Of a stretch of 64,000 nucleotides of DNA, positions 4,295 to 30,764 are shown in pieces (position 1 is the stretch's first letter; the number at the start of each line of letters is the position of its first letter). Source of the DNA: Mesorhizobium sp. 61-13 (GTDB taxonomy: Bacteria > Pseudomonadota > Alphaproteobacteria > Rhizobiales > Rhizobiaceae). Where the stretch lies: contig MKRZ01000089.1 in NCBI GenBank assembly GCA_001897075.1, forward strand, positions 25,911-89,910. The letters are read 5' to 3'. Both the position numbers and the translations under genes were made by a program. Below the pieces are notes generated by a model that saw only the letters and a program-made list of their open reading frames with translations, did no database searches and was not told where the DNA came from.

Positions 4295-4942
4295 GGCCTT
4301 CCTTCCTTGGTTAGCTGGTTGCGCATGCAACCGGACTAGCCACGCGGCGATGAGCGGGGGGTTCGGCGGTCAGGGCCGCCGCCGGGGACAGGGGTATCTC
4401 CCAGCTTGGCAGGGCGCGAGCGACCGAAAGTTGGGGAACGCCCCGGCGGCGTCCGTAGTGAAACGAAGAATGAAAGCCTTGACGGCCGTGGGGCCGCAGG
4501 CCCTCTTTCTCGTCTAGGGATGCGGGCAGCGCCCGCCGATCAGAGCGCCGGCAATGCCGGCTCCGCTGTTCTCAATGCGCGAAGGATGGAAACCGGCTGG
4601 CGGAGACGCTGCGCGGCTCCGGGCGAAGCCTGACAGCCTGGTCCGCTAGGCGGACGCGCCCATTCCTGAAACTGCACTATCTGTTTCTGCAATCATCAGA
4701 GCCGATTCAGGATTTCTCCGAACCGACGTTATGCAATCCGGGCCTGACTGCCAATCCAGACTGTGAATCTGCATCGGTCTGTCCTTGAAACGCGCAAGCG
4801 CAAATTCCCGTATCCCCTGCCTTCACTTCGTTGCAGGCGGGCGATTCCCCTCGGTTTTTGCGCCTGCGCGCCGTCCATCCCGAAGCGACAGGGCATTCAC
4901 AAGGCTGGCGATCAAGCCGGCCGCAAAACAAGGAAGAAAATC

Positions 4943-5125
4943 ATGAACCGCTTACTGACCATCGCTGAACTGCAACATCGCAGCCAATCGGAATTGCGCG
5001 CCCTGTTCCGGCAGGCCTCACAGGCTTTGGCCCGCACCGCGACCGGCACGCCGGAGCGCCGGGCCGGGCTCGCCACACTGGAGAACATCTCGCGCGCGAT
5101 GACCATGGGGGCGCCGGGCTTTTAG
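4943..5125 (+). CDS. Small hypothetical protein (60 aa)
   Basis: ATG at 4943 preceded by aaggaag. MNRLLTIAELQHRSQSELRALFRQASQALART... The first half of the longer track ORF (4763) looks non-coding. Confidence 0.5.
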   Translation: MNRLLTIAELQHRSQSELRALFRQASQALARTATGTPERRAGLATLENISRAMTMGAPGF

Positions 5126-5141
5126 CCCGGTGCTTTCCCGC

Positions 5142-5837
5142 TCAGGGCCTGTCGGCTTCGGCCGCCAGGTCCCGGCGCAGGGCCTCGGCGGCGCGGGCGC
5201 AATCCACCCACGCCATCTGCCAGTCGAGCAGCAGGTCCTTGTTCATGCTGGTCAGCGCCATCAGAATAGTGCTTCGTGCCAGCTTGCGGTCCCCGTGCGC
5301 GAGCGCATCGAGCGCCGTTTCGATCATGCCGCGCCACTCGCGCCCTGCTTGCAGGACGGGACCGCCGAAGAATTTATAAGTGCTGATGGCATCCCGAAGA
5401 TAACGTCCAGCCTCGCCGGCTCTCGGACATTCTTTCCGGAACGCGCGGGCCGACCGCTCCGACATATTGCGGGTGCGCGGGCTTATTTCTCCGCCGCCTT
5501 CATTGCTGTCGTCGCGCACCTCCGCGATGCGCCCAATGCCGAGATACTCTTCGACAGCATCGAATGGCGTCTCGGACCGCAGGTAAATGAAGGAGTCGGT
5601 GATGTTTCCGCTATCATCGAACACATAGGCCAGCGCCTTGTCGGTCAACACGCGGGCGCGATGAAGGCCGTCCAGATAAAGGTCGATCTCCTGCACGGAG
5701 TCGATCCAACAGTTCACCGGCGGATGTTCCGCACGGTATGCCTGCCGGGCGATCTTGGCCGCTGCGATGTAAAGCGGATTGTCCTGTGGCCGTCCGGTCC
5801 ATTCGGTGTCGTTGTCGTCGTCCGTGATCCCAGTCAT
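5142..5837 (-). CDS. Hypothetical protein (231 aa)
   Basis: Long ORF with protein-like composition, same strand as the flanking parA/ardC genes. No motif I can name. Confidence 0.6.
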   Translation of the reverse strand: MTGITDDDNDTEWTGRPQDNPLYIAAAKIARQAYRAEHPPVNCWIDSVQEIDLYLDGLHRARVLTDKALAYVFDDSGNITDSFIYLRSETPFDAVEEYLGIGRIAEVRDDSNEGGGEISPRTRNMSERSARAFRKECPRAGEAGRYLRDAISTYKFFGGPVLQAGREWRGMIETALDALAHGDRKLARSTILMALTSMNKDLLLDWQMAWVDCARAAEALRRDLAAEADRP

Positions 5838-5898
5838 ATCCTTCTCCCACCGCCGATCCTGCCTTTCCTCGCTTCAGATTTCCACACCGCTTTAGTGA

Positions 5899-6300
5899 TC
5901 ACTGCGGAAGATGCCTGTCTTCGGCAACTATGCCGCCGGGATACTCCCGTTCGAGAAGCGCGACAGCCTTCTCAAGCGTTTCGCCCAGGCCCCAGCCCTG
6001 CTGGTCGGCAATCGCGCAGAACGAGGCAACAGTTTCAGGCGTGGCTTTCAGGTTCAGTTGCATATTGCGGCCGGTGCGACGGCCGCGCGGCGGACTGAGC
6101 TTCGGGGTCTTCGATGGTGCAGGCCGCTCCCCCGCAGCCTGCGGCTCACGGCTACGGAACCCGGCGGCTGCGGCAGCCTTCGTTGTTGCGGCCTTCGGCG
6201 GTTTGTCGTTGGCCTGCGCGTCTGCGCGCGGCAACCATTCAGCCGGGTCGAAGTCGTCAAGCGTATCGGTGAAACCAAGGTCGGCGCGCTGCTTGTCCAT
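5899..6300 (-). CDS. Putative ribbon-helix-helix partition/DNA-binding protein downstream of parA
   Basis: The start codon (MDKQRADLGF) lies 1 nt after the parA stop. C-terminal QLNLKATPETVASFCAIADQQGWGLGETLEKAVALL has an RHH-like strand-helix-helix pattern. Confidence 0.6.
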   Translation of the reverse strand: MDKQRADLGFTDTLDDFDPAEWLPRADAQANDKPPKAATTKAAAAAGFRSREPQAAGERPAPSKTPKLSPPRGRRTGRNMQLNLKATPETVASFCAIADQQGWGLGETLEKAVALLEREYPGGIVAEDRHLPQ

Positions 6301-6301
6301 G

Positions 6302-6994
6302 TCAGGCCACCTTGGGCGCTGCGGCCGCGCTCTTAAGCCTGCCGATGACCTCGCCGGCAAATGCGCGGGCGTTCTCCCGAGCCTTTTCGACGTTGCTGAC
6401 CTGGTCCGGCGTCAGATCTGACAGCAAGCCGCCATAGTCGAAGATGTCGCGATAAGCGGCCCGCTCGACTATAGAGGTTGTCAGCACGTCGATGCCTGCC
6501 TTGTCCAACTGGTCGCGCACGTTGCGCAGTGCCCGTGATGCGACGGCGGCGCTGGTGCGCGTGAGCAGGACGCTATGCGCAATGGTCCGTCGCGCCATGC
6601 GCTCCTGATTGCGGATGAGCTTGATGGTCTTGGCCGCACCTTTTGCGTCCATCGACGCGCCCTGCGTGGGAATGAGGACGAGGTCAGACATGCCGATGGC
6701 GTTCGCCACCATAAGGCTGGCAGTGCCCTCAAGGTCGACAATGACGAATTGCGCCTTCTTCGCGGCGCTCTCGATGTGGTCGACGATGGTGTCTTCGCTT
6801 ACGTCCGCGATGATGTCGATGGTGGCCGGCTTGCCGGGAAGTTTCGCCCACTGGGAGATCCAGCGCTCGGGGTCGGCATCGATGATGGTGACGCGCGCGC
6901 CTTTGGCGGCAAGTTCTCCGGCAAGAAGCAAGGCTGAGGTTGTCTTTCCGGCTCCCCCTTTGGGATTGGCGAAAGAAATAATGGGCATGAACAC
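6302..6994 (-). CDS. parA: ParA-family partition ATPase
   Basis: Deviant Walker A: IISFANPKGGAGKTTSALLLA. ParA/Soj-like length. The start may be the MPII codon at 6988. Confidence 0.9.
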   Translation of the reverse strand: MFMPIISFANPKGGAGKTTSALLLAGELAAKGARVTIIDADPERWISQWAKLPGKPATIDIIADVSEDTIVDHIESAAKKAQFVIVDLEGTASLMVANAIGMSDLVLIPTQGASMDAKGAAKTIKLIRNQERMARRTIAHSVLLTRTSAAVASRALRNVRDQLDKAGIDVLTTSIVERAAYRDIFDYGGLLSDLTPDQVSNVEKARENARAFAGEVIGRLKSAAAAPKVA

Positions 6995-7066
6995 TCACAA
7001 CGGTAATTATTAATGGAATATCATCAATCAAAAGTACCGGAATTTCAGTGCGCAGCGAAATACATT

Positions 7067-7160
7067 CGATAGCTATCCGGATGTTATCCGGAATCTAATC
7101 GATAGCGTGCTATCGGATAGCCAACAGATAGCTATGCGTTGGCTATCTGGTCGCTATCCA
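7067..7160. repeat. Array of GATAGC/GCTATC palindromes upstream of parA (parS/operator candidate)
   Basis: cGATAGCTATCcgg, cGATAGCgtGCTATCg-GATAGCc, aGATAGCtatgcgttgGCTATCt and tcGCTATCc. At least four inverted copies of the same hexamer lie within about 95 bp of an AT-richer intergenic region. Confidence 0.6.
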
Positions 7161-7390
7161 GTGCAAGCCAAAGGCAGATAACACTATGGCAAACGCCAGC
7201 GCGCGAAGTCGTCCTGCGATTCGTCTGTGAAAGATGCGACGTCGCGCACGCCGGGCGTCCTGCACGCCGCGCAAATCCTTGGTTCCCAGAACTGACTTGC
7301 TATAGCGGCGCACATTGCGGACAATTCACGAAACCCGTTCGGGTCTTTCGTAATTCTTTTTGAATACAAATGAGGATTTAGTGACGTAAT

Positions 7391-7448
7391 AAAAAGAAAA
7401 CCCGCCGAAGCGGGTCGCATTAAAATCAAAGATGTTCGTGATCTCAGC
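7391..7448 (-). ncRNA. Candidate small RNA (about 58 nt) upstream of, and opposite to, the rep-like gene
   Basis: On the minus strand: TTGCGA (7483-7478), a 17-nt spacer, GATATT (7460-7455). About 40 nt downstream is the hairpin acccgc-TTCG-gcgggt followed by tttcttttt (7416-7391). No plausible ORF lies between promoter and terminator. Confidence 0.4.
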
Positions 7449-7555
7449 AATCCGAATATCTCAAACTCCGAATAACATCGCAAGCACTTTCTGCGATGCT
7501 TTCGTGCGCCCTCACGTTTCTGCGGGTTTTCTCCATCGCATAGAGGAGGAAACCA

Positions 7556-8257
7556 GTGACTATGCAAAATGATCCGCAAGCCGCCTTCATCAAATCGGCG
7601 CGCAAGCTACAGAATCGAATCGTGACGCCGGGAACCGATCCGCGACCGATGAATGTCCCAGCCGCCGATCCTACGCGGCGCAAGCGTTCGCTCAATACCT
7701 GCCATCGCTATGCGCAGTCAGAGCGACCGCGCAGTGTCGCGCCGCACACCAGCTGGGCCTATGTGCCGGAACTGGCGGCGCGCATTGAGGACGATCCGAA
7801 CCTCACCGATGGCGCGCGGCGCTGCGCGCGCAAGCTCGCCGAGCTGACCTATCGTCGGAACAGGGAAGGCCGGTTGCTGCCGGTGACAGTCACATACCTC
7901 GCAAGGGCGCTCGGCCGTTGCCGGCGTACCGTACAACGCTATCTCCGCCAGCTGGAGCGGGAAGGGTATGTCGCGGTCGATGTCGTCGTTTCGCAGCGGG
8001 CGAGGATGTGCGTCGGCCTCGTAGTGCGGCTCCTTCAGCCGCTGCTTGCTGCGCATCACCGCGAACGGTGGCCCGGAAGCTCTGCAAAGCCAGGGGCGAC
8101 ACCGGAGTCACTGAACAAGAGATTCAAAGGTTATATTCAGGCGGAAGGTTATCGAACCGGCGTCGAGCAATGGGCGCTGCGCTGCATGGATGGGGTTTTC
8201 CGCAGCTATATGAAAACAGCCCCGCTCGCCGCGCTGCCGTCCATCGCTGCCACGTAA
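7556..8257 (+). CDS. Winged-HTH protein, replication-initiator-like, divergent from parA
   Basis: RBS gaggagga before GTG 7556 / ATG 7562. DGARRCARKLAELTY...VTYLARALGRCRRTVQRYLRQLEREGYV is wHTH-like. The position next to parA is typical for a rep/regulator gene. Confidence 0.6.
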   Translation: MTMQNDPQAAFIKSARKLQNRIVTPGTDPRPMNVPAADPTRRKRSLNTCHRYAQSERPRSVAPHTSWAYVPELAARIEDDPNLTDGARRCARKLAELTYRRNREGRLLPVTVTYLARALGRCRRTVQRYLRQLEREGYVAVDVVVSQRARMCVGLVVRLLQPLLAAHHRERWPGSSAKPGATPESLNKRFKGYIQAEGYRTGVEQWALRCMDGVFRSYMKTAPLAALPSIAAT

Positions 8258-8399
8258 TAATCTTGCGCCGATGCCAATGCCGATTCCGGCCCGGTAGCGG
8301 GGCGGAGAATGCGCTATTGCCTTCAGGGGGTGGTTCGGGCCCGGTCAGCGCCGGAACGCATCCTGACGCAAACTCGGCGAAATCAGGGGCTTTCCCGTA

Positions 8400-8834
8400 T
8401 CAGGACCACAAACGCGAGAGCCATGACCAGAATCCGTTCTTCGGTCTGCTGGGCGGCACTGAGTCAGCGGGCTTGGCAGCCTGCTTCGACTCGTCGAAAT
8501 AACGCGCCTTGGCGCGGCGGTCGTGGGCGCGGACGCTATCGATCTGGTCCTGCGTCATGTCGCCCGCCCAACGGGCCTTGCCCTTGTCGATCCAGTAGTG
8601 GGAACGGCAGGGGAAACTCCAGTTTCCGATTGAGGGATGAAGAGATACGGCTACGCCGTCATAGGTCAATTTCCAGTCGGTGGGGCTAAGCGGCGTTACG
8701 ACTTCTAGGCCGCAGCCGCAGCAGCATTTGTGCGCGACCGTGGCGTATTCCATCGATACGTAAAGGGTATTCTCGGCGAGTCTGTCGGGGATGCTCGCGA
8801 CAAATTCCGTGTCGAGGACGATGGGCTGTTTCAT
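8400..8834 (-). CDS. DUF6527-like Cys-rich protein (last gene of the ubiquitin-like operon)
   Basis: MKQPIVLDTEF...VAHKCCCGCGLEVVTPLSPTDWKL...SIGNWSFPCRSHYWI. The start ATG overlaps the E1 stop (ATGA at 8831-8834). Confidence 0.7.
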   Translation of the reverse strand: MKQPIVLDTEFVASIPDRLAENTLYVSMEYATVAHKCCCGCGLEVVTPLSPTDWKLTYDGVAVSLHPSIGNWSFPCRSHYWIDKGKARWAGDMTQDQIDSVRAHDRRAKARYFDESKQAAKPADSVPPSRPKNGFWSWLSRLWS

Positions 8835-10012
8835 GGCTTGTCCTCGTTCAGGAGCATGTTGCCGTCGAGCGTGTAGGTGCAATGGTGTTCGTCATCCAGA
8901 TCGAGGTAAAACCCGAACAGCTTCTTCCACTTGATGACTGCCAGCGCCGCGTTCAGGGCGTTCAGATCGGCAATCTGGATATTCTTGACATACAAGTCGT
9001 CGGCCGCGCCCGTAGAAAGGCCGATACGCTTCTTGTCGCGGATATGCGCCCTCATCCGTTCGGTGCTGGTAGTCGTCCTGACGATGCCCTGCAGCTTGTC
9101 GTCCACGAGGTCGATGCCCATGCCGACATCGACAAACGGGATGCTCAGTGGCTCCAGCTTCTCGATGATCGGTCGCTTTGCATCGCCGCGATCGACGCAA
9201 AGGAAGACGAATGCCATCCCGTCGAGGCAGTCCGCATTCGCGGCGTCGATATGGAAATCGTGCGCCACGATGTTCCGGCGCATCGGCGCATAGCGGTCGC
9301 GGAAGTAATGGACCTTTTTCGGCGCGGCCTTCAGTTCGGCAAGCGTTGCGGCCCCGGGCGAGCGAAACGCATTGTGCTGGAGGTAATGGTCGCCGTCGAA
9401 AAGATGGATCTCATGGACCGGCGTTTTCGCCACCAGATCGAGGACGTAGGAACCCGTACCGCCAAGGCCGATGATCGCCACCTTGGGCAGGGCCAGCTTC
9501 TGCGACACGGCGTAGATGCCCGCGCGGCTTGAGGCAGTGTCCAGATACTCGAATACGGAATCGGGGTCTTCGGCTTCGATCACCCGGAACGTCTTCGCCG
9601 TGGCCGTCGGATCGATTGCCGCCGCATGGCTCGACAGCATGTCGGCGTAGGTGGTCATCTTGTGGTGGTAGTCCTGATACCCGCTGGCGGGCTTGCTCGA
9701 AAACGAGTGCTCCACCACGAGACCGTCGCCCAGATTCTGACGGCTGCTGCCGTTGACGATCTTGGTCAGAGGACGTCCATGCCGGTCGCAGGGATGCTCG
9801 CCCGCGAACAGGGCGACGTGGGTCTCCGGCTTCGCAGTGACCTGCCCGGCGAGATTGAGCGTCGAGACCAGCAGTCCGCGTTTCACGACGCGCTTGCTGT
9901 TAACGTAAGGCACGTTGCGGAGAACGAGGTGGTTGGCCCTGACCTCCACCTCGTATCCGTCTTCCTTCAGCTTGGCGAGGTCGGGACTACGACTTATCAG
10001 TGGCGGTGACAT
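8831..10012 (-). CDS. ThiF/E1-like adenylyltransferase with an N-terminal E2-like (DUF6791-type) domain
   Basis: Rossmann motif KVAIIGLGGTGSYVLDLV...HLFDGDH. The N-terminal roughly 140 aa carry FAGEHPCDRHG (candidate catalytic Cys, by inference). Confidence 0.8.
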   Translation of the reverse strand: MSPPLISRSPDLAKLKEDGYEVEVRANHLVLRNVPYVNSKRVVKRGLLVSTLNLAGQVTAKPETHVALFAGEHPCDRHGRPLTKIVNGSSRQNLGDGLVVEHSFSSKPASGYQDYHHKMTTYADMLSSHAAAIDPTATAKTFRVIEAEDPDSVFEYLDTASSRAGIYAVSQKLALPKVAIIGLGGTGSYVLDLVAKTPVHEIHLFDGDHYLQHNAFRSPGAATLAELKAAPKKVHYFRDRYAPMRRNIVAHDFHIDAANADCLDGMAFVFLCVDRGDAKRPIIEKLEPLSIPFVDVGMGIDLVDDKLQGIVRTTTSTERMRAHIRDKKRIGLSTGAADDLYVKNIQIADLNALNAALAVIKWKKLFGFYLDLDDEHHCTYTLDGNMLLNEDKP

Positions 10013-10304
10013 TGAAGATCATGCCCTTCTTGATTTTCACAGTTTCGCCCTCGACGAGCGATCCTTCTGGCTTCTCGCCTTGGCCGCGCCGGTAGGTGAT
10101 CGTGAAGACGATGTTCTCGCCCGTCGGCGGCGTGTCAAAGGCGAGCGCGACGAGCTGCGCGAAGGAAAGTTCCTTGCCGGTCACGGTCTTCTCGCGGCCG
10201 TTCACGACGATGGTGATGTCCTTGTCGTGATCGCTGTGACCGCCGTTGCCGTGGTCATCGCGGTGGTCGTTGCCGTTGCGGCCGTGTTTGTGATCGTCGG
10301 TCAT
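9987..10304 (-). CDS. Multiubiquitin-family beta-grasp (ubiquitin-like) protein with a His/Asp-rich N-terminal tail
   Basis: ITIVVNGREKTVTGKELSFAQLVALAFDTPPTGENIVFTITYRRGQGEKPEGSLVEGETVKIKKGMIFNVTATDKS fits the multiubiquitin domain pattern. Tail: MTDDHKHGRNGNDHRDDHGNGGHSDHDKD. There is no C-terminal Gly-Gly. Confidence 0.75.
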   Translation of the reverse strand: MTDDHKHGRNGNDHRDDHGNGGHSDHDKDITIVVNGREKTVTGKELSFAQLVALAFDTPPTGENIVFTITYRRGQGEKPEGSLVEGETVKIKKGMIFNVTATDKS

Positions 10305-10325
10305 CCTTTTCGTCCTTTCTTCGGT

Positions 10326-10559
10326 TCAGCCCTTGGGCGGGAACGGGTCGCCGCCGTGGCTGTCGCTGCTGGCGATGCGGCCGTCCTGATTGTGGATGCG
10401 CAGCTCGGTGCCCTGATTGCGGCTGACGGTGCGACCGCTTTCGATAGCCTCGCGCTTGGTTTCGTGGTGCCTGCTGGCGCGTTCAGCGCCGCCGCGCTTC
10501 ACGTCCCATCCTCCGTTCGGGTTCGGGACGACATGGTGGGTTTTCGGCCCTTTGCTCAT
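10326..10559 (-). CDS. DUF2188-like small protein
   Basis: MSKGPKTHHVVPNPNGGWDVKRGGAERASRHHETKREAIESGRTVSRNQGTELRIHNQDGRI. Lies 21 nt upstream of the Ubl gene on the same strand. Confidence 0.65.
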   Translation of the reverse strand: MSKGPKTHHVVPNPNGGWDVKRGGAERASRHHETKREAIESGRTVSRNQGTELRIHNQDGRIASSDSHGGDPFPPKG

Positions 10560-10611
10560 CGTTCGGGTCTCCTTGACCTGCTTCCTCGCGGAACCGCTGT
10601 TCCGCATATCT

Positions 10612-10626
10612 GCTAATTAGCGTATT
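10612..10626. promoter_or_regulatory. Operator candidate GCTAATTAGCGTATT (copy 1), upstream of the DUF2188-Ubl-E1 operon
   Basis: A 15/15 identical copy occurs at 11764-11778. The core GCTAATTAGC is a perfect palindrome. Confidence 0.55.
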
Positions 10627-10673
10627 TCAGAGTCGAATACAAGGGCAGCCGATTTTTCGGCTGCCGGCGTTGT

Positions 10674-11399
10674 TTAGAGACGGTCGAAGAGGGAGGGCCC
10701 GGCGGACGTTGCGCCCAGAATGTTTAGTCGGAGGAGCCTCACCCGCGCGGCATCCGCCGACACCTGGAACGCTTCCTGAACCCGCGCGATCAGGGCCTGG
10801 CCGTGTTCCGTGCCGGTGCCGATGACTCCGAACAGCCCGTTAGCTTCCTGATATGCGCCGACGACGCGGCGCAGATAGGACACCGGCATCAACAGCGCGC
10901 CGCAGGCATGGCCCGCTTGCCATTCCATCCAGTCGGTCTGGACAGCTTCCAGCATCGTATCGCGCTTGCAAATCTGCTTGTTGGCGTTCGGATTCCGCCG
11001 GAGCAAATCGGCGCCGGGCGGCTCGACCTCCCAAAGATAGGCATGGAAATGCACATGCCCGTATTCGTGGGTCAGGGTTGTACGGAGCCGATTCTCGCGC
11101 CGTTCGTCGTTGGAGAGGTTCTCGGCGATGCGGACGATCGGCTTCCGCCCCGGCTGGAACTCGGTCACGCCCTCTACGTCATGGCCGTATGAGGACAGGT
11201 CAGCGTAACCGTCGAAATCTTCTGTGTCGCGCTCGATCAGTAGCGTGAGATCGTCGGTCGTGACCGGGAACTCGGCCTCGCCGTATTTGTTCTTCAGGAA
11301 TCCCGTGATGATGTTCTCACATTCACGGTCGAGTTCTTCGGGCTTGTAGTGCGGGCGCTGAGAGAAACGCCCTGTCGTGTCACGAACGTATCTCACCAT
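10674..11399 (-). CDS. ImmA/IrrE-family zinc metallopeptidase
   Basis: HEYGHVHFH (HExxH) in a DUF955-like context. Lies 11 nt downstream of an XRE repressor gene, as in ImmR/ImmA pairs. Confidence 0.8.
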   Translation of the reverse strand: MVRYVRDTTGRFSQRPHYKPEELDRECENIITGFLKNKYGEAEFPVTTDDLTLLIERDTEDFDGYADLSSYGHDVEGVTEFQPGRKPIVRIAENLSNDERRENRLRTTLTHEYGHVHFHAYLWEVEPPGADLLRRNPNANKQICKRDTMLEAVQTDWMEWQAGHACGALLMPVSYLRRVVGAYQEANGLFGVIGTGTEHGQALIARVQEAFQVSADAARVRLLRLNILGATSAGPSLFDRL

Positions 11400-11410
11400 C
11401 CACTACCGCC

Positions 11411-11737
11411 TCATTTGCTGTTCGGCTTGCCGCGAAAGGCGACCATCGCCTTGGCGACTTCCTGTTGCGACAGCTTCCTTTCTCGCAGGTCCGCCGGAAA
11501 CTTGCCGGCCAGGTAATAGAGCCAGTCCGCCTCGATACCGAGCACGTCGGCGAATTGCTGGACCATCCGGTCGGATGAAGGGCTGCGCCGATCGTGCTCG
11601 ATGTCGTTGAGGTACTGCGGGGAAATGGCTTCTTCGTCCTCCCGGAGAATTTTTTGGGCAAGCTCTTTCTGGCTCCAGCCGCGCGCTTTGCGCGCCTGAC
11701 TTATAGCGCGCCCGAAGGTATCCGCCTTGTCACTCAT
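11411..11737 (-). CDS. XRE-family HTH transcriptional regulator (ImmR-like)
   Basis: FGRAISQARKARGWSQKELAQKI...QYLNDIEHDRRSPS is a Cro/C1-type HTH. Confidence 0.85.
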   Translation of the reverse strand: MSDKADTFGRAISQARKARGWSQKELAQKILREDEEAISPQYLNDIEHDRRSPSSDRMVQQFADVLGIEADWLYYLAGKFPADLRERKLSQQEVAKAMVAFRGKPNSK

Positions 11738-11763
11738 GTTGCTCCTTCACAATACGCTTATTC

Positions 11764-11778
11764 GCTAATTAGCGTATT
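11764..11778. promoter_or_regulatory. Operator candidate GCTAATTAGCGTATT (copy 2), upstream of the XRE-ImmA operon
   Basis: Identical to 10612-10626. Here it sits inside a larger inverted repeat, AATACGCT-N12-AGCGTATT. Confidence 0.55.
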
Positions 11779-11831
11779 CCAAGGGCGAATCACGGTCAAG
11801 ATGCCCATGGGATGCCGTGAAGCTGGCGGCA

Positions 11832-12479
11832 TCACGCCGCCAGCCTCCGGGCTGCGATGCCGTGATAGGCCCGGTCGATTTCGATCCCGATATAGTTGCA
11901 ACCGGCCTCGGTGGCGGCCACCAGGGTCGAACCCGAGCCGCAGAACGGGTCGAGCACCAGCCCGTCTTCCGGGCAGAACGCCTCGATCAGCGGCGTCAGC
12001 GCCGCGACCGGCTTCTGCGTCGGGTGCAGGCGATTGCCGCTATAGGGGAAATCGATCACGTCGGCGGGCGGGTTCTCCGGCAGCTCCGGACGGCCCTTGG
12101 CCAGCACATAGGCCGATTCGTGCGTGTAGCTGACGAAGCGGGATCGGGAAGCGTATTTCTTGCGAAATACGATGTGCCCGACGATGCGGAAGCCCGCCTT
12201 GCGCCATGCCTGCATGAAGCGGTCGGTCTGCGTCCAGCCGTAGAAGCTGACGGCGAGGCTGTCGTTCTTCAGGATGCGGTACATCTCGCGGTAGGCTGGC
12301 TCCAGCCAGTCGGCATTGTCGTCGTTGGCGATGGAGCGCCCGCTGCGGTCCTTGTAGCGGACGAGATAAGGCGGGTCCGTCAGGATGAAATCGACGGATC
12401 GGGACGGCATTTGGCGCATCACCTCAATGCAGTCTCCCTGCCGGATCGAATTGCGAAGCTGGTCGGTCGTAAAGGTCAT
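11832..12479 (-). CDS. Orphan beta-class (N4-C/N6-A) DNA methyltransferase
   Basis: Motif IV ILTDPPYLV precedes motif I VLDPFCGSGSTLVAA, which is the beta-class order. No adjacent nuclease gene. The likely start is MTFTTDQ at 12479. Confidence 0.85.
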   Translation of the reverse strand: MTFTTDQLRNSIRQGDCIEVMRQMPSRSVDFILTDPPYLVRYKDRSGRSIANDDNADWLEPAYREMYRILKNDSLAVSFYGWTQTDRFMQAWRKAGFRIVGHIVFRKKYASRSRFVSYTHESAYVLAKGRPELPENPPADVIDFPYSGNRLHPTQKPVAALTPLIEAFCPEDGLVLDPFCGSGSTLVAATEAGCNYIGIEIDRAYHGIAARRLAA

Positions 12480-12735
12480 GGCTTGCTCCTGCCTGTTGCG
12501 GTTTGATGCCGCGTGACAGGGCCGGCCGGAGAAGCCGGGGCGCACCGCAAGGGGAATGGCCAACACGGGAGCGAAGCGAAAGAGCGGGCAGGCCATTGCG
12601 CACCTGGCGCGGCCCGCCAGAAGGCGGAAATCAGAACAACCGCACGGCAGGGGCAGCCCGATGCCGCCTGACCGAAAACCAGCCTGACCAGTTTGTGCGC
12701 AATACGGGAGACGGGGTTGGTGCGATCACGGTGTC

Positions 12736-13002
12736 ATGGACCCCGTAGATCACATCACTGCCGGACAACGCGCTCCCCGCAAGCCGCACGACGGCTTCGT
12801 GGTCACGGACGATCTTGCCGGCCTGCCGGTTACGGATGCCGAGCTAGATGTCATAGAGGCGTTCCTGATGGCGCAGTTCAGGGCTGTCATGGCCGGCGAA
12901 ACCCCTGCGAAAGCTGCGGTTTCGGCGACAAAGGACTCGGAACAGCCGCAAACCCATGCTGAAATCCCGCGATCCAGACCGAAACGGGGGGCCAGGCGAT
13001 GA
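12736..13002 (+). CDS. Small hypothetical protein translationally coupled to the serine recombinase
   Basis: Its stop overlaps the recombinase ATG (ATGA at 12999-13002). Contains ...DLAGLPVTDAELDVIEAFLMAQF... No recognisable motif. Confidence 0.45.
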   Translation: MDPVDHITAGQRAPRKPHDGFVVTDDLAGLPVTDAELDVIEAFLMAQFRAVMAGETPAKAAVSATKDSEQPQTHAEIPRSRPKRGARR

Positions 13003-16962: not shown

Positions 16963-19839
16963 ATGACCCTCGATCTGTTCAGCGATGCCGAGGCCGAACC
17001 CACCCGTTGGTTCGTCGAGCTTGAGCAATCGACCGGCTCAAAGCCTGTCGACGGCCTCGTTCTTGTCGCTGGTTATGTCCCGACGGGACGTCCTCCCGAG
17101 GAAGTCGCGACCATGGAAAAGGCGCGACGTTACGGCGCGCACTCGGTGTTTTTCGAAGCGGGACGCAATGGGCGAGCCCCCGTCCCGCAGGCCTTCGTCT
17201 TCATCTCCAAGGACGGCACCGACGACAAGGAGTTCGCCGACCTGCACAAGCGGCTGTGGAGCTGGGGCGGCGTTCCAATCCTCTACCGGCGAACGCCCGG
17301 TCAGATTCAGCTCTTCCGCTGTGCGCATGACCCGGACTTCATCTCCGCGACCGGCGAGCAGATCTGCAAGCCCTTCAAGTTCCTCGACATCGGCTCCCGT
17401 ATCGCCGGGAAGGAAGCATGGTGGGATGCCGAGCGGATTCGCAACGGTACGCTCTGGGATGATCCGGATGCCTGCCGCATCATGCTGTCCGCCCAAAAGG
17501 CCGCTCACCGGAAGCTGGTAGACGTCGTCCGTGGACTGAATGACGAACTCAACACCAAGCGCCTGCTAACCGCGCCTTTGCGTCGACGGCTGCTCATCCT
17601 ATCCCTGCTGATCGCATACCTCGAAGAGCGCGGGGTCCTCCGGCCGGAGTTCTTTGGTCGCTATGTGAAGGGCGCGACCCGCTTCTTTGAAGTGTTGCGC
17701 GAAGGCGATGCGCTGGTCGAGATGCTCAAGGCGCTCGAAGACCGCTTCAACGGTCACGTCTTTGCGCTCAAGGATGAGGAAGCCGCGGCGCTGAAGGCCA
17801 GCCGGCAGTTGGGCCGGTTCGCCAGCCTGGTGGAGGGCTACGAGGATACCGGCGGTCAGCTCAGTTTCTGGCGCCTCTATTCTTTCAAGGATCTGCCGGT
17901 CGAGCTGATCAGTCACATCTACCAACTTTTCGTCACCGACACCGACAGTTCCGTCTATACGCCGCCCACCCTGGTTCGGCTGATGCTCGACGAGGCGCTG
18001 AGCTGGGATCGCATCGATCGCCTGATGGCCGGCAAGGAGATCATTCTGGACCCGGCATGCGGCTCTGGCGTCTTCCTCGTCGAGGCGTACAAGCGGCTGG
18101 TGCTGCATTGGCGCAGCCGCAACGATTGGGCCAGGCCCGGGGTCGATGAACTGCGCGCGCTCCTCGAGCGCGTTCACGGCATCGACCTGGAACTGGGCGC
18201 GGTCGAACTGGCCGCGTTCAGCTTGTGCCTGGCGCTCTGCGACGCGCTCGAACCCGAGGAGATCCGCGCCAGCGTCAAGCTCTTCCCCAAGCTGGCCGAC
18301 GCGTCGCTGCATCAGCGGTGTTTCTTTGAAGCTAAGGAAGAAGGTCTGATAGCGGCCCCCGTCGGCGTGCTGATTGGCAATCCGCCTTTCGAATCCAGCC
18401 TCACCACACCGGCGGCAAAGCGCGCCTATGACGCCTATGTCAAACAGCATGGCAAACTGGCCGACCAGCAGGTCGCCTACCTCTTCCTGCACGAGGCCAT
18501 GGGATTGACCGCCAAGGGCGGCGTCCTCAGCATGATCCAGCCCTCGGGCTTTCTCTACAATCAGCATGCCGGCGATTTCCGCGCGAATTTTTTCAAGCGC
18601 TGGAACGTGCGTGAGATCCTCGATCTCGTCTCGGTCCGCGGCCTGTTCAAGAAGGGTGACGCCGATCCCAAAGTCGTTGTCGTCGTCGCAGTGGCGGAGC
18701 CCGCAAAACCAGCATCAACGCTGCTGCACACGGTCTTCCGGAGAAACGGGCGGGCCAATGCCGAGCAGGGATTCGAAATCGACTATTACGATCTCCACCG
18801 CGTGCCGCATGCCGCTCTTTCCGGCAATAGTGACATCTGGAGGGCTAATCTGCTCGGTGGCGAACGTCTTCTGACTTTCGTTCAGCGGCTGCGCGGCCTC
18901 CGCACGCTCGGACACTATGCGGCTGAGCGCGAATGGAACAGCGGTGAAGGGTATATCGCCGGCCAAAAGGGAATCTCGCGACCGGCCGCGCACATCGTCG
19001 GGCAGCAGTTGCTGCCCACCAAGGCATTGTCCGCGACGGGCCTGAACCGATCCGCGCTCACCAAGGTGCCAAAGGCGCCCATCAAGGATCCCAAGTCGCA
19101 GGCGCGCTTCACGCCGCCCCTCCTGCTCGTGAAGGAGCATCAGGATCTCTACAACGCTATGTGGGAGGAGAGCTACCTCACCTACAAGCACGAGATCGTC
19201 GGGTTTGCTGCACCCAAGAAGGACCTGAAGCGGCTGCGCCAAGTTCGCGACTGGATCGCGAACAATCGTCCAGCCCTCCAGGCCTACGTCGCCAGCACGA
19301 GCATTCGCTTGTTCACGCAACGCGCCACCTCGATCGCCAGCGCCGACATCATGGCGCTTCCCTATCCAGAAGACGGTACGCTCGACCTGAGTGCCAATGA
19401 GCAAATCCTGGTCGACGATGTCGTGCGGTACTGGCGCGACTTCGTACGCACCGGCAGTGATTCCGATGTGATGAAGCTCGATGGACGAGAAGCGCTGCCT
19501 GCCTTCGCTGCTTCCTTCACCGCACAGATCAACACGGTCTACCCGACCACGCCGCTGTCGGCGCTTGAACCACAATCGTGGCCCGGCATCATCTGCCAGC
19601 CTTTCGTCTTTGGCGCCGGCCAGGTCGACTGGACCGGCGTCGATGACCTGCGGGGCCGACTGGACAACCTGCTCCGCGAGCAGCGCGGCTCGAGTATCAC
19701 GGTCACGCGCATTGCCCGGATTTACGACGGCAAGTTTGTCTTTCTGCTCAAGCCCGACCGCCTTCGCTACTGGCTCCGGTCGATCGCGCTGCGGGACGCC
19801 GATGACGTGCTCGCCGATCTACGTGCTCAGGGGTTCTAG
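16963..19839 (+). CDS. Large gamma-class N6-adenine DNA methyltransferase (958 aa) with long N- and C-terminal extensions
   Basis: VYTPPTLVRLMLDEAL, motif I LDPACGSGVFLVEAYKRL, HGIDLELGAVELAAFSL, motif IV LIGNPPFES. The flanking roughly 340 and 430 aa have no motif I can name. Confidence 0.8.
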   Translation: MTLDLFSDAEAEPTRWFVELEQSTGSKPVDGLVLVAGYVPTGRPPEEVATMEKARRYGAHSVFFEAGRNGRAPVPQAFVFISKDGTDDKEFADLHKRLWSWGGVPILYRRTPGQIQLFRCAHDPDFISATGEQICKPFKFLDIGSRIAGKEAWWDAERIRNGTLWDDPDACRIMLSAQKAAHRKLVDVVRGLNDELNTKRLLTAPLRRRLLILSLLIAYLEERGVLRPEFFGRYVKGATRFFEVLREGDALVEMLKALEDRFNGHVFALKDEEAAALKASRQLGRFASLVEGYEDTGGQLSFWRLYSFKDLPVELISHIYQLFVTDTDSSVYTPPTLVRLMLDEALSWDRIDRLMAGKEIILDPACGSGVFLVEAYKRLVLHWRSRNDWARPGVDELRALLERVHGIDLELGAVELAAFSLCLALCDALEPEEIRASVKLFPKLADASLHQRCFFEAKEEGLIAAPVGVLIGNPPFESSLTTPAAKRAYDAYVKQHGKLADQQVAYLFLHEAMGLTAKGGVLSMIQPSGFLYNQHAGDFRANFFKRWNVREILDLVSVRGLFKKGDADPKVVVVVAVAEPAKPASTLLHTVFRRNGRANAEQGFEIDYYDLHRVPHAALSGNSDIWRANLLGGERLLTFVQRLRGLRTLGHYAAEREWNSGEGYIAGQKGISRPAAHIVGQQLLPTKALSATGLNRSALTKVPKAPIKDPKSQARFTPPLLLVKEHQDLYNAMWEESYLTYKHEIVGFAAPKKDLKRLRQVRDWIANNRPALQAYVASTSIRLFTQRATSIASADIMALPYPEDGTLDLSANEQILVDDVVRYWRDFVRTGSDSDVMKLDGREALPAFAASFTAQINTVYPTTPLSALEPQSWPGIICQPFVFGAGQVDWTGVDDLRGRLDNLLREQRGSSITVTRIARIYDGKFVFLLKPDRLRYWLRSIALRDADDVLADLRAQGF

Positions 19840-20726: not shown

Positions 20727-23700
20727 GTGGACGATATTTTTCAAAGACTCGTTCGTCGGGATGAGCGCCGCTCCGAAGCCGAAATCCAGGCGGATGTACG
20801 ACAGTTCATCTTGTCCGCGCCCTTTGAGCTCGACGAGGGGGATGTCGCTCTGGTCGCCCTTGAATCCTCAGTCGGCAATCGACAGCGCATTGACGTCGAA
20901 GTTGGCGCTACGGTGATTGAAGTCAAACGCGATCTCCGCCGCGGAAGAGTCAAAGAGGAAGCGATTGACCAGCTTGCGGGCTATGTGGAACTGCGGATGC
21001 AGCAAACCGGCTTGCGATACGTCGGCGTTCTGACGGATGGAACAGAATGGTGTTGCTACCATCTCGTAGAAGGCGGACTAAGGGAGGTATCAAACGCGAC
21101 GTTCGGTTCACCTTCCGATGACTTGAGTCGTCTTGTCGTGTGGCTTGAGGGCGTCCTTGCCACCGCGAAGGGCATTCCGCCCACCCCGCAGAACATTGAA
21201 GCCCGCCTTGGGGCGAGAAGCAGCGCCTACGCATTGGATCGCGCAACTCTCTCCACCCTCTTCCAACAGAACCGCACGAATCCTAGCGTCCAGCTCAAGC
21301 GCACCCTTTGGTCACGGCTGCTCACGTCGGCCCTCGGTACGCAATTCGAGGATACCGACGATCTTTTCATCGAGCACACCCTTCTCGTCAACACGGCCGA
21401 GATTATCGCTCACGCCGTGTTGGGCCTGTCACTCGAGGCCCAAAACCCCGTTTCATTGCTGGGTGGGCACAAGTTTGATGAAAGCGGCATCTATGGTGTC
21501 GTTGAGCCCGACTTTTTCGATTGGGTGATCGAAGTGGACGGAGGCGAGCGTTTTGTGAGGACGCTGGCTAAGAGGCTGGGTCGGTTCGATTGGGAACACG
21601 TCCATCAGGATATCCTCAAGGTTCTGTACGAAAGCATCATCGCAGCCGAGACTCGCCAGCGCATGGGAGAATATTACACGCCCGATTGGCTAGCGGACGT
21701 TGTTGTCCAGCATGCAGTACCTCAGCCTTTGGCAACGCGTGTTCTCGATCCTGCCTGCGGGTCAGGGACATTCTTGTTCCATGCAATCAGATCGTACGTT
21801 GAGGCCGCCGAGCGAGACGGTATGTCTGTTTCCGACATGCTGGACTCGTTGACGAAAAGCGTCATCGGGATGGACCTACATCCTGTGGCGGTAACACTCG
21901 CCCGCGTTACCTACCTTCTTGCCATAGGCCGTGAGCGGCTCACTCACCCAGCACGTGGGACGATCCAGATTCCGGTCTATCTTGGCGACTCTCTGCAGTG
22001 GCAAGAGCAAAGTGCTGACCTCTGGGCTGCTGAGAATCTTGTCATTCGGGTGGACGATAAGCAGGAATTGGTGGGGCCAGAACTGCGCTTCCCTGACGGA
22101 CTACTTGATGATGCCGCCCGCTTCGACCAACTCGTAACCGAACTGGCGAACCGCGCGGCCAAGCGGAAGCCCGGTGCTGCGGTACCCGCCCTCACAGTCG
22201 TATTTCAACGCCTGGCGATTCCAGAGAAATACAGGAAAACAATCGAGGCTACTTTCGCAACGATGTGTCGCTTGCACGACGCAGGCCGGGATCACATTTG
22301 GGGCTATTTTGTCAGAAACCTGGCTAGGCCACTGTGGCTTTCGCGCGAGAAGAATCGCGTCGACGTGCTGATCGGCAACCCTCCCTGGCTCGCTCTGCGA
22401 CACATGACCAGCGACATGCAAGTCGCATTTCGAAACATGAGTGAGGCGCGCGGGTTGTGGGCCGGTGCCGAGAACGCCACACACCAGGATTTGTCGGGGC
22501 TCTTCGTCATTCGCGCCGCCGAGCTTTATCTGAAGCGCGGAGGCCGTTTCGCGCTCGTGATGCCAAACGCTGCATTGGATCGCGAACACTATTCCGGCTT
22601 CCGTCGCGGATACTATGGGGACGCCACGATCGGGCTGAAGCTCCAATTCAGCGCCTCGTGGGACCTGCGTCGTATACGTCCCCACTTCTTCCCTCGTGCG
22701 GCATGTGTCGCATTCGGCACGCGCTCGACACGTGGGGAGGAAATGACGGACGAAGCTACGATTTGGTCAGGACGACTGCCTCGGCCTAATGCACCCTGGT
22801 CAGAGGCTCGTCCGCTCCTCGTGCGCAGTGAAGGGCATGTGACGCGTACCGGCATGGGCCTCAGGTCACCCTATCACCCTGCTTTCGCCCAAGGTGCCGT
22901 CTTGCTTCCGAGATTCTTGTTCTCGGTTGAGGACCAAGTGAAACCACCCCTTGGCTTGCCCTCCGGGAAAGTAGCGGTCAAGTCGTCGAGGAGCGTCCAA
23001 GAAAAGAAGCCTTGGAAAGAGCTTCCAGCTCTAGAGGGCGTGGTCGAAAGCGAGTTCGTAAGACCCTACTTCAACGGCGAAAACATCCTTCCTTATTTGG
23101 CGGGCTCTCCAGAAAGAGCCGTCATCCCCTGCAATCCTAGCCGTCTTCTAACGAGCGACGAGATCGAGTTTCATCCTGGATTGCAGCACTGGTGGGAGCG
23201 CGCTGACGCGCTATGGAAAGAGCATTCCGGCGGAAAAATATCTTCGCTGCGGGGCCAACTGGACTACCAATCCAAGCTGTCGAAGCAGTTGCCCGTAGTT
23301 CCTCTTCGTGTCGTCTACAACCGCTCCGGAATGCATGTGGTCGCGGCAAAGGTGCGCGACAGGCGCGCGCTGATTGCAAGTGGATTGTATTGGGCAGCAG
23401 TGCATTCCGATGCAGAAGCTAATTTCCTTTGCGCAATCCTTAATGCTCCGATCACCACCGAATTGGTCCGGCCGTATATGACTTACGGCAAGGACGAGAG
23501 GGACGTAGCCAAGCACATTTGGGAGTTGCCAATCCCGACCTTCGACCCTGACGATACCGTTCATGCGCGGCTCGCCGAGCTGGGGCAATGGGCCGAACGC
23601 GAAGTTTCGAATTTTGCCATCAATGATAGCGTGCACTTCTCCGCCGTTCGTCGACACATTCGCCAGCACCTCGCCGCGTCCGCCGAGGCGGAGGAAATTA

Positions 23701-23729
23701 ACAATACCGTGTTTGAGCTGCTCGGGTAA
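20727..23729 (+). CDS. Type IIG/IIL-like restriction-modification enzyme (nuclease-methyltransferase fusion, 1000 aa)
   Basis: D-x8-E-x-K (RIDVEVGATVIEVKRDL), GEYYTPDWLADVV, motif I VLDPACGSGTFLFHAI, motif IV LIGNPPWLALRHM. Same layout as the open-ended gene at 1-2711. Confidence 0.8.
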   Translation: MDDIFQRLVRRDERRSEAEIQADVRQFILSAPFELDEGDVALVALESSVGNRQRIDVEVGATVIEVKRDLRRGRVKEEAIDQLAGYVELRMQQTGLRYVGVLTDGTEWCCYHLVEGGLREVSNATFGSPSDDLSRLVVWLEGVLATAKGIPPTPQNIEARLGARSSAYALDRATLSTLFQQNRTNPSVQLKRTLWSRLLTSALGTQFEDTDDLFIEHTLLVNTAEIIAHAVLGLSLEAQNPVSLLGGHKFDESGIYGVVEPDFFDWVIEVDGGERFVRTLAKRLGRFDWEHVHQDILKVLYESIIAAETRQRMGEYYTPDWLADVVVQHAVPQPLATRVLDPACGSGTFLFHAIRSYVEAAERDGMSVSDMLDSLTKSVIGMDLHPVAVTLARVTYLLAIGRERLTHPARGTIQIPVYLGDSLQWQEQSADLWAAENLVIRVDDKQELVGPELRFPDGLLDDAARFDQLVTELANRAAKRKPGAAVPALTVVFQRLAIPEKYRKTIEATFATMCRLHDAGRDHIWGYFVRNLARPLWLSREKNRVDVLIGNPPWLALRHMTSDMQVAFRNMSEARGLWAGAENATHQDLSGLFVIRAAELYLKRGGRFALVMPNAALDREHYSGFRRGYYGDATIGLKLQFSASWDLRRIRPHFFPRAACVAFGTRSTRGEEMTDEATIWSGRLPRPNAPWSEARPLLVRSEGHVTRTGMGLRSPYHPAFAQGAVLLPRFLFSVEDQVKPPLGLPSGKVAVKSSRSVQEKKPWKELPALEGVVESEFVRPYFNGENILPYLAGSPERAVIPCNPSRLLTSDEIEFHPGLQHWWERADALWKEHSGGKISSLRGQLDYQSKLSKQLPVVPLRVVYNRSGMHVVAAKVRDRRALIASGLYWAAVHSDAEANFLCAILNAPITTELVRPYMTYGKDERDVAKHIWELPIPTFDPDDTVHARLAELGQWAEREVSNFAINDSVHFSAVRRHIRQHLAASAEAEEINNTVFELLG

Positions 23730-30556: not shown

Positions 30557-30764
30557 GAGCAAGAAATACTGTCGCCCGTGTCAGCGACAAAGAACAAAAT
30601 GCGAGCCCTGGGCTGCTCCACATCGCGTTCGCTGTGGATTCTCCATATTGCAGGAGCCTTGCTTTCGACCGCAGTTTCTTCGACAGACTTAGCAGGGGAC
30701 CGACAGCACACCGGCAATCCTCGGCTCGGCAACCCAACGGTCACAAACTGCGAGGCTTTCGAGC

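Follow-up and report, generated by a model that had tools for sequence, protein, structure and literature searches.

What does a compact operon encoding a ubiquitin-like protein together with E1- and E2-like enzymes do on a bacterial mobile element, and which of its residues would carry the chemistry? The question is raised by a 64,000-nucleotide stretch of Mesorhizobium sp. 61-13 (contig MKRZ01000089.1, positions 25,911 to 89,910; hereafter the window), in which four co-directional, tightly packed minus-strand open reading frames (ORFs) fill positions 8400-10559. In order of transcription, they encode a 77-residue DUF2188 protein with the start MSKGPK (10326..10559; Pfam PF09954, 1.3e-23), for which a longer ORF reaching 10607 is also possible; a 105-residue ubiquitin-like protein (Ubl) of the Multi_ubiq family (9987..10304; PF14452, 3.5e-21); a 393-residue fusion of DUF6791 (PF20590, 3.6e-60, residues 10-159) and ThiF (3.6e-9, residues 171-297) domains (8831..10012); and a DUF6527 protein of 144 residues when counted from its ATG (8400..8834; PF20137, 1.2e-25). 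These Pfam matches are far beyond chance, and the sequence upholds the gene packing described in the initial annotation, with 21 nt separating the DUF2188 stop codon from the start of the Ubl gene, a 26-nt overlap between the Ubl and fusion genes and an ATGA overlap between the fusion and DUF6527 genes. We propose, with a probability of roughly 85%, that these genes and the two regulator-like genes upstream form a complete, intact six-gene cassette (approximately 8400-11800, minus strand; capH-like, capP-like, DUF2188, bubA, bubBD and bubE) for Ubl conjugation through an oxyester relay that would be induced by DNA damage or infection.

Operons of the 6E/DUF6527 type have been renamed Bub by Ye and colleagues (Ye, Gong, Chambers & Corbett; bioRxiv 10.1101/2024.11.21.623953), with structures available in the PDB as 9ea4-9eav and 9cd2. 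Type II Bub operons, formerly 6E.2, comprise BubA (the Ubl), BubBD (an E2-E1 fusion) and BubE (DUF6527), normally without a JAB peptidase (10.1101/2024.11.21.623953). The Pfam order Multi_ubiq, DUF6791+ThiF, DUF6527 in the window reproduces this complement and recurs as the same trio in approximately 90 independent loci, a Pfam scan of the locus gave no match to a JAB peptidase, and PF20137 is already labelled "BubE" in the precomputed Pfam annotation of the contigs that we looked up. By gene content and order, the last three genes can thus be assigned as a textbook Type II Bub operon, and the earlier suggestion of a Bub-type conjugation operon is borne out both by this complement and by the closest matches of the proteins themselves, which are Bub proteins.

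Indeed, the window BubBD is 41% identical over 389 amino acids (E 1e-95) to the biochemically tested BubBD of E. coli ZDHYS365 (Table S2 of Ye et al.); the E. coli BubBD and BubA sequences were machine-read from the paper's supplement and carry small errors, and a distant blastn search for the E. coli bub operon by DNA against complete E. coli genomes found no match. The E1 half, in which the Rossmann motif GLGGTGS recognized at the outset lies at residues 182-188, matches Citrobacter BubCD (9ea4, 9ea5, 9eav) in sequence at 2e-5 (phmmer), and the same protein is the top Foldseek match (2e-12) of the AlphaFold2 model of BubBD (mean predicted local distance difference test score, pLDDT, 80.7), ahead of PaaA, UBA5, MccB, ThiF and MoeB, so that Citrobacter BubCD is the closest solved structure. 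The fusion protein falls in NCBIfam PRK06153.1-4 (2e-175) and belongs to a family with at least 8000 matches in a 90%-clustered database and 583 clusters at 50% identity (E < 1e-30). The PADLOC E1-E2 profiles match the window proteins weakly (1e-7 or weaker) and over the Rossmann region only. The locus is an ordinary, intact member of the already described Type II Bub family.

BubBD is divided into an E2-like DUF6791 domain (residues 1 to approximately 150) and an E1 adenylation domain (approximately 160-393), and its first domain contains an HPC motif (FAGEHPCDRHG) that the initial annotation had read as the E2 active site. The motif is present, directly after the fourth strand of the N-terminal meander and about where canonical E2s have HPN, but among 143 diverse BubBD proteins that are 41-63% identical to the window protein Cys75 occurs in only 101, with His, Arg, Ser or Tyr in its place elsewhere. 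Conservation among these homologues rules out Cys75 as the E2 active site, and because His73 is also variable we treat the resemblance to HPN as a lead only; Pro74 is kept in 141 sequences. Taken one by one, the four cysteines in the window BubBD recur in 101, 0, 83 and 8 of the 143 homologues, leaving no conserved catalytic cysteine. The conserved candidate nucleophile is instead Ser105 (140/143), which aligns with E. coli S106, and it is accompanied by His65 (143/143; E. coli H66), Lys107 (126/143; E. coli K108), the adenylation-site Arg217 (143/143; E. coli R219), Lys233 (143/143) and the crossover-loop Tyr341 (141/143; E. coli Y342). In E. coli, the S106A, R219A and Y342F substitutions abolish the BubA-BubA conjugate and mutation of K108 does not (Ye et al., 10.1101/2024.11.21.623953). 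Because the conserved Ser105, Arg217 and Tyr341 match the residues whose mutation eliminates E. coli conjugation, we assign Ser105 as the predicted E2 nucleophile in a relay that would also use Arg217 and Tyr341 and pass the Ubl from tyrosine to serine through oxyesters, not thioesters. Tyr341 sits in the only long low-confidence loop of the AlphaFold2 model (residues 332-343, pLDDT < 50), which fits a mobile crossover loop. The three remaining homologues carry a cysteine in the Ser105 column and could, by sequence, be natural thioester-type variants of the Type II Bub E2.

The Ubl itself is a single beta-grasp (residues approximately 30-105) preceded by a disordered tail, and over residues 27-105 it aligns at 7e-12 (phmmer) with the third of the beta-grasps in E. 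coli ZDHYS365 BubA, whose structure has been solved (PDB 9cd2), an alignment that together with the Pfam match supports its early identification as a multiubiquitin-type beta-grasp. Its C-terminus, NVTATDKS, indeed lacks Gly-Gly as first noticed, but this is no oddity: all 88 Type II BubA proteins that we extracted from 96 loci end in serine (TDKS in 50, TNKS in 16 and close variants in the rest), as does the conjugation-competent E. coli BubA, which also ends in TDKS. The missing Gly-Gly is therefore a family trait, distinct from the terminal glycine of Type I BubA (Ye et al., 10.1101/2024.11.21.623953). The position of the bubA stop codon 26 nt inside bubBD is likewise found in nearly all of the approximately 90 loci. 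The 29-residue N-terminal tail does contain the 6 His and 8 Asp reported for it, as recounted here, and a tail of this kind is confined to the close clade of the window protein, where 5-9 His and 7-9 Asp per approximately 30 residues are kept in composition while the sequence varies; the more distant BubA of locus L006 has 3 His and 6 Asp in its tail, and more distant single-domain BubAs have shorter polar tails. Diverse N-terminal extensions of Bub Ubls, and calcium-dependent filaments of the three-domain Ubls, have been described by Gong et al. By analogy with that Ca2+-dependent assembly one may speculate, as a weaker possibility, that the His/Asp-rich tail acts as a metal-sensing switch.

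The last gene had been called DUF6527-like from a CCCGCG...C..H cluster (HKCCCGCG...CRSH), an assignment that its PF20137 match sustains under the present name BubE. The cluster is there, but it belongs to a structural C4 zinc site, and the catalytic residues are predicted to be Ser68 and His79. Across 83 BubE sequences, His35, Cys37, Cys39, Gly40, Cys41, Pro67, Ser68, Gly70, Cys76, Ser78, His79 and Tyr80 are invariant, and alignment with Citrobacter BubE, for which a Ser-His protease dyad and a C4 zinc site have been published (Ye et al., 10.1101/2024.11.21.623953), equates Ser68 with S92, His79 with H102 and Cys37/39/41/76 with C57/59/61/99; the residues also align with E. coli BubE. By homology, the window protein is thus a predicted zinc-stabilized Ser68/His79 serine protease. 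Its C-terminus, GFWSWLSRLWS, is amphipathic and matches the "hydrophobic extension" that Ye et al. (10.1101/2024.11.21.623953) describe on BubE, and Trp/Leu/Lys-rich tails are found throughout the family.

Compared with the E. coli ZDHYS365 system, the window has the same three genes in the same order without JAB, an E2 serine, adenylation arginine and crossover-loop tyrosine all in place, an identical TDKS end on BubA, and a BubE with Ser-His dyad, C4 zinc site and hydrophobic extension, and both its association with CapH/CapP-like genes and its location on a mobile element are as reported for the family. It differs in that E. coli BubA has three beta-grasps whereas the window protein has one behind its His/Asp-rich tail, in the DUF2188 gene inserted between the regulators and bubA, and in regulators that are co-directional with the operon and accompanied by a duplicated operator candidate. 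The Citrobacter Type I system shares the E1 adenylation domain, the oxyester logic and a homologous BubE with identical catalytic and zinc-binding residues, but its Ubl is fused to E2 and its E1 to JAB, and processing by JAB leaves BubA with a C-terminal glycine, whereas in the window E2 is fused to E1, JAB is absent and BubA ends in serine; moreover, the DUF6791 domain has no detectable profile similarity to BubB (Prok-E2_E). The bacterial ISG15-like (Bil) system and Cap2/Cap3 of Type II cyclic-oligonucleotide-based antiphage signaling systems (CBASS) likewise conjugate a protein through its C-terminus by means of E1 and E2, have a deconjugating peptidase of their own and reside in mobile or defence loci, but they use a catalytic cysteine and thioesters, JAB peptidases and glycine-type C-termini. 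The serine-ended BubA and the lack of an invariant cysteine in BubBD also set the window apart from canonical ubiquitin and Bil conjugation.

Directly upstream of the operon and on the same strand lie an XRE helix-turn-helix (HTH) repressor gene of 108 codons (11411..11737; Pfam HTH_3 4.6e-14, PADLOC capH 2e-7) and an ImmA/IrrE-type (M78) zinc metallopeptidase gene of 241 codons with the HExxH motif HEYGH (10674..11399; PADLOC capP 8.4e-9). The initial annotation had counted this ImmA/XRE pair among the neighbours on the mobile element; the genes are as described, but rather than housekeeping functions of the element they represent a CapP/CapH-like regulator that moves with the cassette. Copies of capP and capH that are 92-98% identical accompany the operon in five relatives of other taxa, and capH copies of 92-97% identity occupy the same position in loci L002, L003, L004, L007 and L010. 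More broadly, CapH/CapP-like genes are present in 41 of the 58 Type II Bub loci whose upstream region was long enough to be scored (25 divergent, 16 co-directional), and Ye et al. (10.1101/2024.11.21.623953) report CapH/CapP in 31% of 544 Bub operons. As in the CapH/CapP modules of CBASS, where CapH binds a conserved promoter site and CapP, a peptidase with a C-terminal GAF domain, cleaves CapH once activated by single-stranded DNA (ssDNA) (Lau et al., 10.1101/2022.04.27.489752), adjacent XRE-HTH and HExxH M78 peptidase genes that match the PADLOC profiles stand directly upstream of a defence-type operon, and DUF2188 has already been noted in CapH/CapP-associated operons.

The regulator genes are flanked by two copies of one operator candidate. 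The 15-mer AATACGCTAATTAGC occurs exactly twice in the 64-kb window, with 0.01 occurrences expected by chance: one copy (11764-11778) lies 24 nt upstream of the capH start and the other (10612-10626, minus strand) 53 nt upstream of the DUF2188 start, ahead of DUF2188 and the bub genes. The first copy forms part of a longer operator candidate in the capH promoter region (11751..11778, minus strand), an imperfect palindrome AATACGCT..AGCGTATT with a TTGACC hexamer resembling a -35 element upstream of it. Between capP and the second copy lies a terminator-like hairpin (10644..10665, minus strand; GGCAGCCG-aaaaat-CGGCTGCC followed by CTTGTATT), and a hairpin at this position is also found in L004, L007 and L010. 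With at most one mismatch the 15-mer is present in L002, L003, L004, L007 and L010, and both copies are conserved in the co-directional relatives. A sigma-70 consensus scan of positions 8200-12000 found no promoter, so the promoter positions are taken only from the TTGACC hexamer and the operator candidate. From this layout we infer two CapH-repressed transcription units that would be de-repressed when ssDNA-activated CapP cleaves CapH. A second inverted repeat, GCGGAAC-AGCG-GTTCCGC (10570-10600, minus strand), lies between the downstream operator copy and the DUF2188 ribosome-binding site. The repeat is also kept in L002, L004, L007 and L010, and it may represent either a hairpin in the leader RNA or a further site for protein binding.

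The DUF2188 gene appears to go with these regulators. Its product matches the PADLOC candidate PDC-S16 at 5e-36 over the full length of the profile, which itself carries no functional information, and belongs to a subfamily with 78-88% identity across many taxa, invariant His pairs and an SDSHGxDPxPP motif. The contexts of six such proteins include four that precede Type II Bub (in Maricaulis, Hyphomicrobium, Pacificitalea and one other) and two that precede CBASS (CD-NTase and Saf_2TM-SAVED), and five of the six are directly beside CapH/CapP. DUF2188 lies directly upstream of bubA in 10 of the 58 scoreable loci, mostly close relatives of the window, and is unmentioned in either Bub preprint (Ye et al.; Gong et al.), and both DUF2188 and DUF3892 have been linked to CapH/CapP operons (Lau et al., 10.1101/2022.04.27.489752). 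The low incidence in Bub loci, the presence of DUF3892 in the same slot elsewhere and the occurrence of the same protein ahead of CBASS led us to reject DUF2188 as a core Bub component, and we conclude that it belongs, as an accessory, to the CapH/CapP regulatory head and not to the Ubl pathway; within the Bub loci, its association with CapH/CapP was not significant (Fisher p = 0.25; small, non-independent sample). The AlphaFold2 model of DUF2188 (pLDDT 81.7) has a beta-beta-beta-alpha-beta topology with no significant match among PDB structures, the best being the HicB N-terminal domain (E 0.23), and a kinship with the DUF1508/YegP domains fused to some Bub Ubls is unsupported, there being neither a PDB sequence match nor a significant structural one.

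Several loci illustrate the variability of this slot. A 94-residue DUF3892 protein (PF13031, 6e-18) fills the position between CapH/CapP and bubA in L043 (1298-1681), L068 (4270-4554), L070 (2653-2937) and L082 (4266-4550), and in L040 the slot holds an HNH endonuclease-like ORF. In L097-L103 (approximately 6000-8900) and L112-L114 (approximately 4500-7400), a DUF2188 protein 81-86% identical to that of the window is the first gene of a CapH/CapP-controlled CBASS, and these loci share backbone genes with the window-type element (ParB in both sets, DUF2958 and ArdC in L097-L100). Furthermore, a Hyphomicrobiales metagenome-assembled genome (MAG) contig (L001, JAFKKW010000133, 5519-8223) matches the window at 99.85% identity between positions 10493 and 7790, a stretch covering most of DUF2188, bubA, bubBD, bubE and part of an HTH gene; upstream of window position 10493 there is no nucleotide similarity, and a divergent capP/capH pair takes the place of the window's own. 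The breakpoint, some 22 codons into DUF2188, suggests from the sequence that regulatory heads have been swapped at the conserved DUF2188 gene. It is conceivable, although at well below even odds, that the small, His-rich and highly conserved DUF2188 protein is no passive passenger but a working component that moves with the CapH/CapP head, for instance a co-regulator or sensor that Bub, CBASS and other cassettes have in common and that is produced first upon induction, and that its gene doubles as a homologous joint for exchanges between heads and cassettes, the latter because the breakpoint between the window and L001 falls inside it.

Taken together, these elements outline a possible sequence of events. 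CapH bound to the 15-bp operator ahead of capH and DUF2188 would keep both units off, as the duplicated, conserved motif implies; DNA damage or infection would generate ssDNA and activate CapP, which would then cut CapH, following the CapH/CapP family mechanism (Lau et al. 2022). A BubBD dimer would adenylate the C-terminal carboxylate of BubA (...TDKS) at the ThiF-type site with Arg217, and BubA would pass to Tyr341 in the flexible crossover loop and from there to Ser105 in the E2-like domain, in both cases as an oxyester, before its transfer to target lysines. BubE, zinc-stabilized, equipped with Ser68 and His79 and carrying an amphipathic tail, would strip the conjugates. All the relay residues are present in the window, and the conjugation, oxyester and deconjugation chemistry has been demonstrated only for the E. 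coli and Citrobacter systems.

A number of observations count against this proposal. At the column of Tyr341, the machine-read E. coli BubBD shows valine rather than tyrosine, which we attribute to an error of optical character recognition because residue numbering in that text is off by 1-2 elsewhere; the likely equivalence of Tyr341 and E. coli Y342 is drawn from conservation and numbering, not from the pairwise alignment. The AlphaFold2 model of the N-terminal domain (pLDDT approximately 90) is built from one helix, a meander of four strands, a hairpin ending at Ser105 and a long helix, and as modelled is compatible with a minimal ubiquitin-conjugating (UBC) fold, but the best 50 Foldseek matches of the full-length model all cover the E1 part, a profile of this domain against PDB sequences returned noise only, and hhalign gave probabilities of 1.4% against Citrobacter BubB and 0.3% against human UbcH5b, the latter query being approximate. 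A Pfam search of the domain at E values up to 10 retrieved DUF6791 only, and the homologue search for a Type I BubB profile yielded a single fragment, annotated as Prok-E2_E. Because the fold comparisons gave no match, the E2 assignment is drawn from the orthologous E. coli BubBD together with published mutagenesis and predictions.

On the regulatory side, the capP-like protein scores just below the Pfam Peptidase_M78 threshold (2.2e-4, 21.4 bits against a 22-bit cutoff) and is some 50-60 residues shorter than the approximately 290-300 residues of its divergent relatives. Whereas CapH and CapP were originally described on the opposite strand, with a divergent promoter shared with the operon that they regulate (Lau et al., 10.1101/2022.04.27.489752), here the minus strand carries the two regulator genes and the operon alike, with a terminator-like hairpin and second operator copy of their own in place of the shared promoter. 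Both operator binding and inducibility are predictions from sequence. Finally, no Bub operon has so far been found to protect against phage, and none did so in E. coli (Ye et al., 10.1101/2024.11.21.623953).

By analogy, the most likely role of the cassette is that of a defence cargo on a mobile element, induced by stress or infection: the same DUF2188 head is found on CBASS operons, and neighbours elsewhere include AbiE, HipA and SNF2 helicase genes. A rival explanation, which we regard as rather unlikely, is that the cassette serves the element and not the host, with Bub modifying proteins of the element or the host after DNA damage and so controlling transfer, establishment or anti-defence; the same signal also triggers excision and transfer of many integrative elements. 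The missing phage protection would fit such a role, as would the position of the cassette between ParA/HTH and ArdC genes on one side and methylase, serine recombinase and tyrosine integrase genes on the other, the relaxase or ParB genes that adjoin related cassettes, and the occurrence of the trio on several IMG/VR viral contigs. However, BLASTN similarity to L004 and L007 spans window positions 11801 to approximately 8496 and then ends; because it stops at these limits, we take the moving unit to be the stretch from the capH promoter through bubE, and this 3.3-kb cassette (11801-8496) recurs as a discrete unit in unrelated flanks. It is also found in large chromosomal contigs beside AbiE, HipA and restriction-like genes, its CapH/CapP and DUF2188 head drives CBASS, an established anti-phage system, and nothing ties Bub specifically to conjugation machinery.

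Much less probable is that the operon is not concerned with protein conjugation at all but encodes a ThiF/MoeB- or MccB/PaaA-like pathway, in which a small beta-grasp protein is adenylated for sulfur transfer or peptide modification. The Foldseek matches to PaaA, MccB, ThiF and MoeB (1e-8 to 1e-10), the Ubl without Gly-Gly and the BubBD without a conserved catalytic cysteine could be read in this way. Against it, Bub proteins give the best matches in both structure and sequence, the E. coli orthologue (41% identical) makes ATP-dependent BubA conjugates that need S106, R219 and Y342, the dedicated deconjugating protease BubE is always present, and the window annotation contains no rhodanese, sulfurtransferase or biosynthetic neighbours.

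Equally improbable is a decaying, non-functional remnant carried as a passive passenger. Loss of this kind does happen: in locus L008, which shares the ParA/HTH backbone, bubA is gone and bubBD lacks its first 122 codons. In the window, however, all four ORFs are intact and their starts coupled, no catalytic or zinc-binding residue is missing, and an independent assembly contains a copy with 99.85% identity. L008 itself (Pelagibacterium sediminicola NZ_QMEL01000002, 6001-9283 against window 6302-9649) retains the backbone and bubE, with bubBD cut to residues 123-393 and bubA, DUF2188 and the regulators gone; it is a copy of the cassette that has decayed.

The genes that surround the cassette in the window encode an ArdC antirestriction protein, ParA, an HTH protein, an orphan-type methylase, a large serine recombinase and a tyrosine integrase, as well as DnaE2, a chromate transporter and a Strawberry-notch-type helicase. 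The initial annotation had contrasted this par/rep and antirestriction context with a classic defence island; the mobile-element setting holds, but the ImmA/XRE genes belong to the cassette and two type IIG restriction-modification-like genes (PADLOC 6e-28 and 2e-77) lie approximately 6.4 kb away, so that the setting is a mobile element with defence-type cargo close by. No tRNA gene was found in the 64-kb window, a megablast of positions 6000-13000 against PLSDB plasmids gave no match that would identify the element, and the only identical public stretch found is the 10.5-kb Hyphomicrobiales MAG contig L001.

Directly upstream of capH, an N6/N4 DNA methyltransferase gene (11832-12596, minus strand; PADLOC MTase_II 4.5e-96) adjoins no evident restriction partner and may encode an orphan or anti-restriction methylase of the element. 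Farther upstream, the two large Eco57I/MmeI-like type IIG genes (16963-19839 and 20727-23729, plus strand; REase_MTase_IIG) flank a 250-residue ORF of no assigned family and are followed by three plus-strand ORFs and one 1357-residue minus-strand ORF (26489-30562) without Pfam or PADLOC matches; with these adjoining ORFs they may form a further defence cluster. At approximately 31000-32000, the G+C content shifts from approximately 0.57-0.64 (1-32 kb) to approximately 0.63-0.70 (32-64 kb), which may mark a boundary between element modules or between element and host; the second half of the window contains DnaE2, major facilitator superfamily transporters, the chromate transporter and the Strawberry-notch-like helicase.

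Among the known relatives of the ubiquitin machinery, Bub systems have diverged the furthest, and they operate without any catalytic cysteine. The Mesorhizobium locus adds nothing categorically new to them but provides a minimal example, a single beta-grasp Ubl in a 3.3-kb self-contained cassette on an alphaproteobacterial mobile element. For annotation, it corrects the tempting but wrong reading of HPC as the E2 catalytic cysteine, and for regulation it offers a testable layout in which a CapH/CapP-like pair stands between two copies of the same operator candidate. Its additions are modest: the duplicated operator candidate, the co-directional arrangement of the regulators, and DUF2188 as part of a head module common to CBASS. 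The last of these strengthens the as yet unproven case for Bub as an induced immunity cargo.

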